Shown piece after piece: positions 7,245 to 7,883 of a stretch of DNA of 41,674 bases (position 1 is its first letter; each line of letters begins with the position of its first letter). The DNA lies in contig DASWHU010000240.1 in assembly GCA_036398035.1 (NCBI GenBank), positions 1 through 41,674 on the forward strand. Direction: 5' to 3'. The notes under the pieces are model-generated. The model was not told the DNA's origin. It made no database searches and was given only the letters and a program-made list of their open reading frames with translations. This DNA is from Alphaproteobacteria bacterium. Its GTDB lineage: Bacteria; Pseudomonadota; Alphaproteobacteria; UBA7887. The position numbers and the translations under genes were made by a program.

Positions 7245-7252
7245 GTCCTGCG
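7245..7252. repeat. left copy of the flanking direct repeat GTCCTGCG (putative target-site duplication)
   Basis: It is identical to the octamer at 7813..7820 and lies directly outside the left inverted repeat. Confidence 0.6.
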
Positions 7253-7273
7253 GGTGGTGTCTCAGTTTGAAAT
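7253..7273. repeat. left terminal inverted repeat GGTGGTGTCTCAGTTTGAAAT
   Basis: The reverse complement of 7792..7812 is GGTAGTGTCTCAGTTTGAAAT, which differs at one position. Confidence 0.8.
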
Positions 7274-7347
7274 CCGCGACCCCTGACGCGAGTGTCGCGT
7301 CCTGCCTTTGGCTTCTATAGGCTTAGCGGAAGCACGGGAGGCTGGCC

Positions 7348-7803
7348 TTGCGCGATACCACTCACGCACCTGAGCTGAAGACAGACCGCCTTATCGCGAG
7401 CGGCTTTGAGTTATCGGGACGGTGGGAGTTGGACACCGCTTCACGCGCACGATTCATCGGCGAAGCTCCGAAGCAACCGGGGGTCTACGCTTTTGCGGTG
7501 GACGGAAAGGTTCTTTATATCGGTTCCGCCCAGCGTGGCATCGCCAAACGGTTGCGTCGCTACGAAATCACCGAAATCCGGCTGACGGCGTTTCGCGTCA
7601 GAGCTTTGATAACCGAAGCGCTCGGGGACGGTTCCGAGGTTGCAGTGCTCACGATTGTCCCATGCTCAATGCGATGGAAGGGCCTTCCTGTGGACCTGAT
7701 CGCCGGACTTGAAGAGGGCCTCATTCGCGAGTTGCGACCAGAATGGAATATTCGCGGACTCGGCGCTCTGCGAAAGAAAACGGCTTCCGAAATTTCAAAC
7801 TGA
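7348..7803 (+). CDS. GIY-YIG nuclease family protein
   Basis: 151 aa. The TTG start lies 6 nt after a GGGAGG Shine-Dalgarno. Motifs seen are GVYAF (GIY), VLYIGSA (YIG), conserved Arg (RLRRY), conserved Glu (LEEGLIREL) and PEWN. The stop codon lies inside the right inverted repeat. Confidence 0.75.
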   Translation: MRDTTHAPELKTDRLIASGFELSGRWELDTASRARFIGEAPKQPGVYAFAVDGKVLYIGSAQRGIAKRLRRYEITEIRLTAFRVRALITEALGDGSEVAVLTIVPCSMRWKGLPVDLIAGLEEGLIRELRPEWNIRGLGALRKKTASEISN

Positions 7804-7812
7804 GACACTACC
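7792..7812. repeat. right terminal inverted repeat ATTTCAAACTGAGACACTACC
   Basis: It pairs with 7253..7273 (20/21) and contains the last codons and the TGA stop of the GIY-YIG ORF. Confidence 0.8.
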
Positions 7813-7820
7813 GTCCTGCG
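7813..7820. repeat. right copy of the flanking direct repeat GTCCTGCG
   Basis: It is identical to 7245..7252 and lies directly outside the right inverted repeat. Confidence 0.6.
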
Positions 7821-7883
7821 CGCCCGCTTGACCCGCCGGCGTGATGATGATTGGCTGATGTTCTTATTCTGTTCCAATGGCAT

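Follow-up and report, generated by a model that had tools for sequence, protein, structure and literature searches.

The question raised by this locus is whether a GIY-YIG nuclease can act as the mobility protein of a transposon. In the 41.7-kb stretch of alphaproteobacterial DNA analysed here (all 41,674 bp of contig DASWHU010000240.1, part of a metagenome-assembled genome; the whole stretch is called the window), an element of 560 bp (7253–7812) lies between an Hpt gene and a Zn-ribbon gene; it is bounded by inverted repeats and flanked by short direct repeats, and its sole sizeable open reading frame (ORF) encodes a GIY-YIG protein of 151 amino acids, with no second ORF in the interior. The initial annotation of this DNA had put forward either a new kind of element with the GIY-YIG enzyme as its mobility protein or a homing endonuclease gene with an unusual footprint. 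Neither proposal was borne out by the comparisons reported below, and the element is most probably a mobile insertion cassette (MIC) of an insertion sequence (IS) of the IS1 family, which would be moved in trans by the cognate DDE transposase and would carry the GIY-YIG gene as cargo. It has IS ends, no transposase inside and one unrelated gene, which is the make-up by which a MIC is recognized. MICs and MITEs (miniature transposable elements with inverted repeats) that a cognate transposase mobilizes form an established category (PMC3129680), and the architecture and presumed mobility of the element need nothing new.

The basic anatomy of the element was as first described. The inverted-repeat arms are 21 nt each and complementary at 20 of 21 positions; a search of the window with up to three mismatches found the arm sequence at these two sites only, and 0 sites were found in 100 shuffles. 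The octamer GTCCTGCG stands directly outside both ends, as expected of a target-site duplication. The exact direct repeat around the element is 10 bp long (CCGTCCTGCG), and a 10-bp duplication had been offered as an alternative; this reading was rejected after comparison with 85 other end pairs (described below), which gave a true duplication of 8 bp, and the two additional bases are the CC that ends the right repeat, a CC happening to stand in the left flank as well. The G+C content is 58% in the element versus 69% in its flanks, in line with the lower value noted earlier for the interior. The ORF begins with TTG, 6 nt past a GGGAGG motif, and its final codons (...SEISN) and stop are coded by the right repeat, the stop (7801–7803) being 9 bp from the end of the element.

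The ends were then followed outside the window. Their shared form is GGTAGTG(NN)TCAGTTTGAAA, with starts that vary between GGTAGTG, GGTGGTG and GGCAGTG. When DNA was scanned for TTTCAAACTGANNCACTACC, the core of the repeat, at least 120 loci were found in metagenomes of the Joint Genome Institute (JGI) and at least 120 in IMG/VR, and end-bearing elements were found by the hundred in metagenomes, viral contigs and plasmids. Among the matches listed, end pairs (40 from JGI, 45 from IMG/VR) enclosed 136–4,797 bp, and perfect 8-bp duplications of unrelated sequence flanked 22 of the 40 and 26 of the 45, transposase-bearing elements included; 8 bp was thus the modal length (48/85), with few duplications of 7 or 9 bp, and the assignment of GTCCTGCG as a target-site duplication holds. 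A DDE transposase homolog of ~300 amino acids was encoded in 26/120 (JGI) and 52/120 (IMG/VR) of these loci, and a GIY-YIG homolog in none of the 240. Protein-free MITEs of 136–600 bp also bear the same ends. Because the same ends and the 8-bp duplication occur in elements without a GIY-YIG gene, the gene is not needed for the architecture, and the proposal of a new kind of element was not supported: ends and duplication belong to a DDE group that is assigned to the IS1 family.

The match between the window element and transposase-bearing members is close. Its right end agrees at 20/20 and its left end at 19/20 positions with the ends of transposase-bearing loci L051, L058 and L138, the left repeat differing by one base from GGTAGTGTCTCAGTTTGAAA, the consensus for the ends of these IS1-family elements. 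For the transposase, the best NCBIfam match was transpos_IS1 (E 3e-17 to 9.5e-20; 63–71 bits, curated cut-off 100), and the L021 transposase scored just above the Pfam cut-offs for DDE_Tnp_IS1 (25.2 versus 24.1) and DDE_Tnp_IS240 (28.1 versus 27). Homologs of 59–66% identity on plasmids of Mesorhizobium loti, Hoeflea and Acidiphilium multivorum are annotated as 'IS1 family transposase' by the Prokaryotic Genome Annotation Pipeline (PGAP). Two of these plasmid genes (Acidiphilium multivorum NZ_CP041717 and Mesorhizobium loti CP050295) lie within elements of 2,634 and 3,370 bp, respectively, that are closed by the same ends and flanked by duplications of 8 bp (Acidiphilium, AAGCCGAG; Mesorhizobium, CGCTGGTG). 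Direct repeats of IS1 are 8–9 bp long (ISfinder). Ends of the form GGnnnTG are a stated feature of the IS1/IS6 families (PMC6807381); the ends of the window group fit this form, and their duplications, 8 bp and occasionally 7 or 9, fit the IS1 family as well. As used here for the putative parents, the label 'IS1 family' rests on the best profile hit, the PGAP naming of the homologs, the end motif and the duplication length. The group also holds an element with a different cargo: the 1,538-bp element L071:329-1866 has perfect ends, the duplication AACAATTA, an intact alpha/beta-hydrolase gene and a transposase remnant, and is a further non-autonomous derivative of this IS group that carries cargo.

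The position of the stop codon within the right repeat points to how the GIY-YIG gene may have entered such an element. The transposase ORF of L021, L050, L095 and L106 likewise has its stop 9 bp short of the element end (...KSN*, ...NSN*, ...ISD* and ...FSN*, respectively), and the annotated transposase coding sequence of L138, an Acidiphilium element, ends at the same distance. Parts of the transposase tail survive in MITEs of the group (...GAYKKKISN in L089, for instance). Outside the repeat-bearing clade, GIY-YIG homologs terminate just past WNRRG; the tail ...RKKxxSEISN is found only in the repeat-bearing GIY-YIG clade and resembles transposase tails such as KKRGSYKKKISN. No inverted repeats accompany the homologs of 38–49% identity, which occur in genomes and on plasmids of Rhodovastum, Shinella, Gluconobacter and Rhizobium, and a protein scan of genome contigs found only six distant GIY-YIG homologs, all of them repeat-less. 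The GIY-YIG family as a whole formed 1,584 clusters at 50% identity, of which only a handful reach the C-terminal tail. From these tails, the stop-codon-in-repeat geometry is judged to be inherited from the transposase gene, and we infer that a free-standing GIY-YIG gene replaced an IS1-family transposase gene and was fused to its last codons. A chimeric database protein of 149 amino acids (P0091) also bears on this history: residues 1–75 match the 3' part of IS1-family transposase genes translated in antisense (15 loci), residues 76–149 come from the C-terminal half of the GIY-YIG protein of the cassettes and end in SEISN, and transposase DNA and GIY-YIG DNA must therefore once have been together in one genome.

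Further GIY-YIG cassettes were found at other sites. Homologs of 54–98% identity occur in metagenomes, most of them ending in ...SEISN, the translation of the right repeat; contigs of several of these were inspected, and in each one the same repeats surrounded the gene. Including the window, seven distinct insertion sites with unrelated 8-mers were obtained, and perfect 8-bp duplications were present at four: the window (GTCCTGCG), L008 (CAACTTTG), L007 (AGGCTATG) and L149 (GGTATCAT). Copies with different flanking octamers, which the initial annotation had suggested looking for, thus exist, and different 8-mers around copies at different sites denote transposition and not homing. Homing was rejected on the ground that the insertion sites are unrelated in sequence, and inverted repeats and duplications are found at them. 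It had also been argued that copies without duplications would favour homing; such copies were indeed seen at three of the seven sites (L015, L017 and L148), set against the perfect duplications at the other four. The L008 copy has a premature stop and has lost its last 15 codons; it is still present in three samples. No match to the whole element was found by blastn in the PLSDB plasmids, and a protein scan of IMG/VR found no GIY-YIG relatives. Short contigs were considered as a sign of multicopy repeats and this was rejected; the median contig of the collection is ~1 kb anyway.

For the protein itself, profile searches and structure gave different answers. The Pfam profiles GIY-YIG (PF01541; E 0.12, 13.1 bits) and GIY_YIG_2 (PF20815; E 0.046, 14.1 bits) stayed below their cut-offs of 22.6 and 22.4 bits, respectively, and NCBIfam gave weak matches to the UvrC N-terminal domain (E ~1e-4). 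Across 30 aligned homologs, the canonical positions (Y47 of GVY, Y57 and G59 of LYIG, R68, E122 and N134) were either invariant or showed conservation of at least 90%. The AlphaFold model computed from this alignment had a predicted local distance difference test score (pLDDT) of 85.9 and a predicted template modelling score (pTM) of 0.81, and consists of a single domain like that of endonuclease II (EndoII) of phage T4, without an extra DNA-binding domain. The 16 best matches of the model in the PDB (Foldseek) were all GIY-YIG enzymes: T4 EndoII came first (2wsh; E 3e-7, template modelling scores 0.67/0.76; ~21% sequence identity), followed by Hpy188I and the UvrC N-terminal domain. Because the catalytic positions are conserved, the model is confident and the structure matches are all GIY-YIG enzymes, the predicted GIY-YIG nuclease fold stands; the earlier identification from sequence landmarks thus held for catalytic residues and predicted fold and failed at the Pfam profile search. 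Ratios of nonsynonymous to synonymous substitution rates (dN/dS) between GIY-YIG copies were 0.22–0.55, and the ORF is thus under purifying selection. No match to the protein was found among the PADLOC defence families. Many repeat-less members of the family (L003–L006; metagenome-assembled genomes of Sphingomicrobium, Microvirga, Sphingomonas and Sphingopyxis) have an N-terminal extension of ~70 amino acids (...KIRAL..AG.S.TEIA.FL.IRYQHVRN.L...) that looks like a helix-turn-helix and is not present in the cassette clade, and the protein P0068 has two modules of helix-turn-helix plus GIY-YIG in tandem.

The following course of events would account for the element. A DDE transposase of the IS group, supplied in trans, would recognize the GGTAGTG..TCAGTTTGAAA ends and insert the element into the interval that separates the Hpt and Zn-ribbon genes; the target would be cut with an 8-bp stagger, and repair of the cut would give the GTCCTGCG duplication. 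The GIY-YIG gene would have been captured from the large family of free-standing, repeat-less GIY-YIG genes, would have taken the place of the transposase gene and been fused to its last codons and its stop in the right end, and would have been kept by selection as an EndoII-like nuclease and not as the mover of the element. Several observations weigh against this account. The GIY-YIG copies L015, L017 and L148 lack a duplication, perhaps because of chimeras in the metagenome assemblies or because copies recombined with one another. The transposase is under the NCBIfam IS1 cut-off (63–71 versus 100 bits). No IS1-family transposase gene was found on the 41.7-kb contig by tblastn with the transposase. 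Finally, the GIY-YIG ORF has been kept over ~50–98% identity and always with these ends, which is more than would be expected of a random passenger, and this conservation leaves a small chance that the gene has some role in the persistence or spread of the element.

The present state of the insertion was assessed at the same site in other contigs, and it is possible, albeit doubtful, that the window copy is an immobile relic, that is, one old insertion that was stranded and vertically inherited with the flanking genes in a genome with no partner transposase. Eight contigs of the same species, from different metagenomes, were found by exact matches to the Hpt and Zn-ribbon proteins; the site was occupied in all eight (8/8), and no empty site of the same species was found among them. 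This agrees with a relic, as do the one mismatch of the left repeat to the consensus and the lack of a transposase on the contig; the perfect duplication and the intact ORF speak against it. An empty site was found at the level of synteny: in a relative (L145; Hpt 60% identical), the Hpt and Zn-ribbon genes are ~90 bp apart with no element between them, and the insertion is therefore lineage-specific. The reconstructed empty-site sequence is GAGCCGGAGCCGTCCTGCGCGCCCGCTTGACC. One Logan contig (L144; SRR10376053) has the response-regulator and Hpt genes of the window and breaks off exactly with the G that closes the left duplication (...GAGCCGTCCTGCG), which is the branch point expected if occupied and empty alleles coexist in the sample; this counts against a relic, and is only a hint. 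A stranded copy, which is plausible, would concern present activity alone and is compatible with an origin as a mobile insertion cassette.

Less probable still, and on the whole unlikely, is that the IS1-family transposase moves the cassette and the GIY-YIG nuclease is a selfish accessory that raises its success; it might do so by cleaving empty alleles or donor flanks, with repair then copying the cassette, or by serving as an addiction or exclusion nuclease that makes loss costly. Such a role is suggested by dN/dS of 0.22–0.55 over deep divergence with the ends retained, by the persistence of the lineage across many metagenomes without a transposase of its own, by T4 EndoII, which acts on host DNA, as the nearest fold, and by repeat-less homologs on plasmids near toxin–antitoxin genes and a thermonuclease gene, whereas the lack of a PADLOC defence-family match, the unrelated insertion sites, at which no site-specific homing was seen, and the persistence of the truncated L008 copy in three samples argue against it. 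If it applied, the element would be a nuclease-armed mobile insertion cassette, in which transposon parasitism is combined with homing-like drive in a hybrid not yet described. It is very improbable that the GIY-YIG protein itself serves as transposase or integrase in a new class of minimal transposon, cutting the inverted repeats and the target with an 8-bp stagger: it is the sole ORF of the element, its catalytic residues are intact, it is under purifying selection, and within the clade its gene is always found with these ends, but hundreds of elements that lack it, protein-free MITEs among them, have these ends and the 8-bp duplication too, full-length elements encode a DDE transposase instead, the model is one EndoII-like domain with no additional DNA-binding domain, homologs outside the clade have no repeats, and the GIY-YIG superfamily consists of hydrolytic nucleases for which we know of no strand-transfer activity.

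Read as an IS1-family mobile insertion cassette, the element removes a false lead, in that the apparent 'GIY-YIG transposon' would be a derivative, without transposase, of a very abundant and poorly annotated IS1-family group. With the combination of GGTAGTG..TCAGTTTGAAA ends and an 8-bp duplication, many MITEs, cassettes and ISs with cargo can be annotated in metagenomes of soil, aquatic and viral origin. A nuclease gene has been retained under selection in a non-autonomous cassette over deep divergence; if the nuclease did aid spread or persistence of the cassette, the strategy would be new among hitch-hiking elements.

Among known systems, MICs are the nearest. Like the window element they have inverted repeats of IS type, a duplication of the length typical of the parent, no transposase and one gene that is not concerned with transposition, and they are thought to be mobilized in trans by the cognate transposase. 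An example is MIC231 of Bacillus cereus, derived from IS231 (De Palmenaer et al. 2004, as cited in PMC3129680). The parent of MIC231 belongs to the IS4 family, whereas that of the window element would be of the IS1 family, and the window element differs further in its GIY-YIG cargo and in an ORF that appears fused to the terminal codons and stop of the parent transposase within the right end. No report of a GIY-YIG gene as cargo of an IS or a MIC was found in the searchable literature. The IS1-family elements on plasmids NZ_CP041717 and CP050295 share with the window element the ends (19/20 left, 20/20 right), the 8-bp duplication and a last ORF that stops 9 bp from the right end; these elements are 2.6–3.4 kb in length compared with 560 bp, and the window element has neither their DDE transposase nor their P63C-domain protein nor the small left-end ORF ending in ...AAAARW. 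Bacterial MITEs are likewise small and non-autonomous, with IS ends and a duplication, but in the window element an intact, selected protein-coding gene fills most of the length.

On the side of the protein, T4 endonuclease II (DenA), Hpy188I and the UvrC N-terminal domain have the same fold, and their GIY, YIG, Arg, Glu and Asn positions are conserved in the window protein; the latter differs from EndoII in its low identity (~21%), in scoring below the Pfam threshold and in the location of its gene in an IS-derived cassette. Homing endonuclease genes of the GIY-YIG type (I-TevI, the Seg proteins of T4) share a GIY-YIG catalytic domain that is coded by a selfish element, but in the window there is no linked DNA-binding domain, intron, intein or conserved homing site, and there are inverted repeats and, at unrelated sites, 8-bp duplications, neither of which homing yields. 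Penelope-like GIY-YIG elements have a linked reverse transcriptase, unlike the window element, which has no other ORF in its 560 bp.

The coordinates of the features are listed in Table 1.

Table 1. Features of the 560-bp element and its flanking duplications (window coordinates).
Feature	Position	Strand	Remark
Left copy of the 8-bp target-site duplication GTCCTGCG	7245..7252	.	Same as 7813-7820; adjoins left repeat
Left terminal inverted repeat GGTGGTGTCTCAGTTTGAAAT, GGnnnTG end of IS1/IS6 type	7253..7273	+	20/21 versus right repeat
Leader of 74 bp from left repeat to ORF, holding the hairpin (7285-7301) and the ribosome-binding site GGGAGG (7336-7341)	7274..7347	+	
Putative cargo gene, nuclease of predicted GIY-YIG fold, 151 amino acids (NCBI HEX9647574.1, 'GIY-YIG nuclease family protein')	7348..7803	+	
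Right terminal inverted repeat, reverse complement GGTAGTGTCTCAGTTTGAAAT	7792..7812	-	
Right copy of the 8-bp target-site duplication GTCCTGCG	7813..7820	.	Same as 7245-7252

The leader contains two features that had been noted before and are present, a hairpin (GACGCGA-GTG-TCGCGTC) and a third copy of CGTCCTGC at 7298–7305. The third copy was rejected as a functional feature and is taken as coincidental, because the related copies L148 and L149 read CGTTTTGC at this position. The leader is not found in relatives of ~480 bp (L007, L015 and L017), in which ~20 bp separate the repeat from the ATG; L148 and L149 have a leader related to it, so that it is specific to the sub-lineage formed by these two and the window. 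Scans of the leader, the element and the window found no Rfam match, tRNA, or promoter or terminator consensus.

Elements of ~3 kb with these ends (L051:5650-8827; L021:160-3163; L050:81-3333; L106:4818-8267; L139:1799-5168) are not simple ISs. L051 encodes a P63C-domain protein besides the transposase, and L021, L050, L051, L106 and L130 have a small ORF at the left end, ending in ...ARA..LS.E.R..IA..AA.ARW, whose frame opens inside the left repeat in L021, L050 and L106; in the Mesorhizobium plasmid copy, a small ORF at this position is annotated as 'histone H1'. The P63C-domain protein and the small left-end ORF give the impression of conserved accessory genes in an IS group that carries cargo. 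The same ends were very common in contigs classed as viral (IMG/VR L150–L269; transposase in 52 of 120 among the matches listed), so that phage or prophage DNA is a frequent location of this IS group.

As to target choice, comparison of the end pairs showed a mild preference for C at positions −1 and −2 of the insertion targets. In four insertions of GIY-YIG cassettes (the window at 7828–7840, L007, L015 and L017), a TTGAC(A)-like motif was seen 10–15 bp past the right end, which may reflect insertion just upstream of promoters, or chance.

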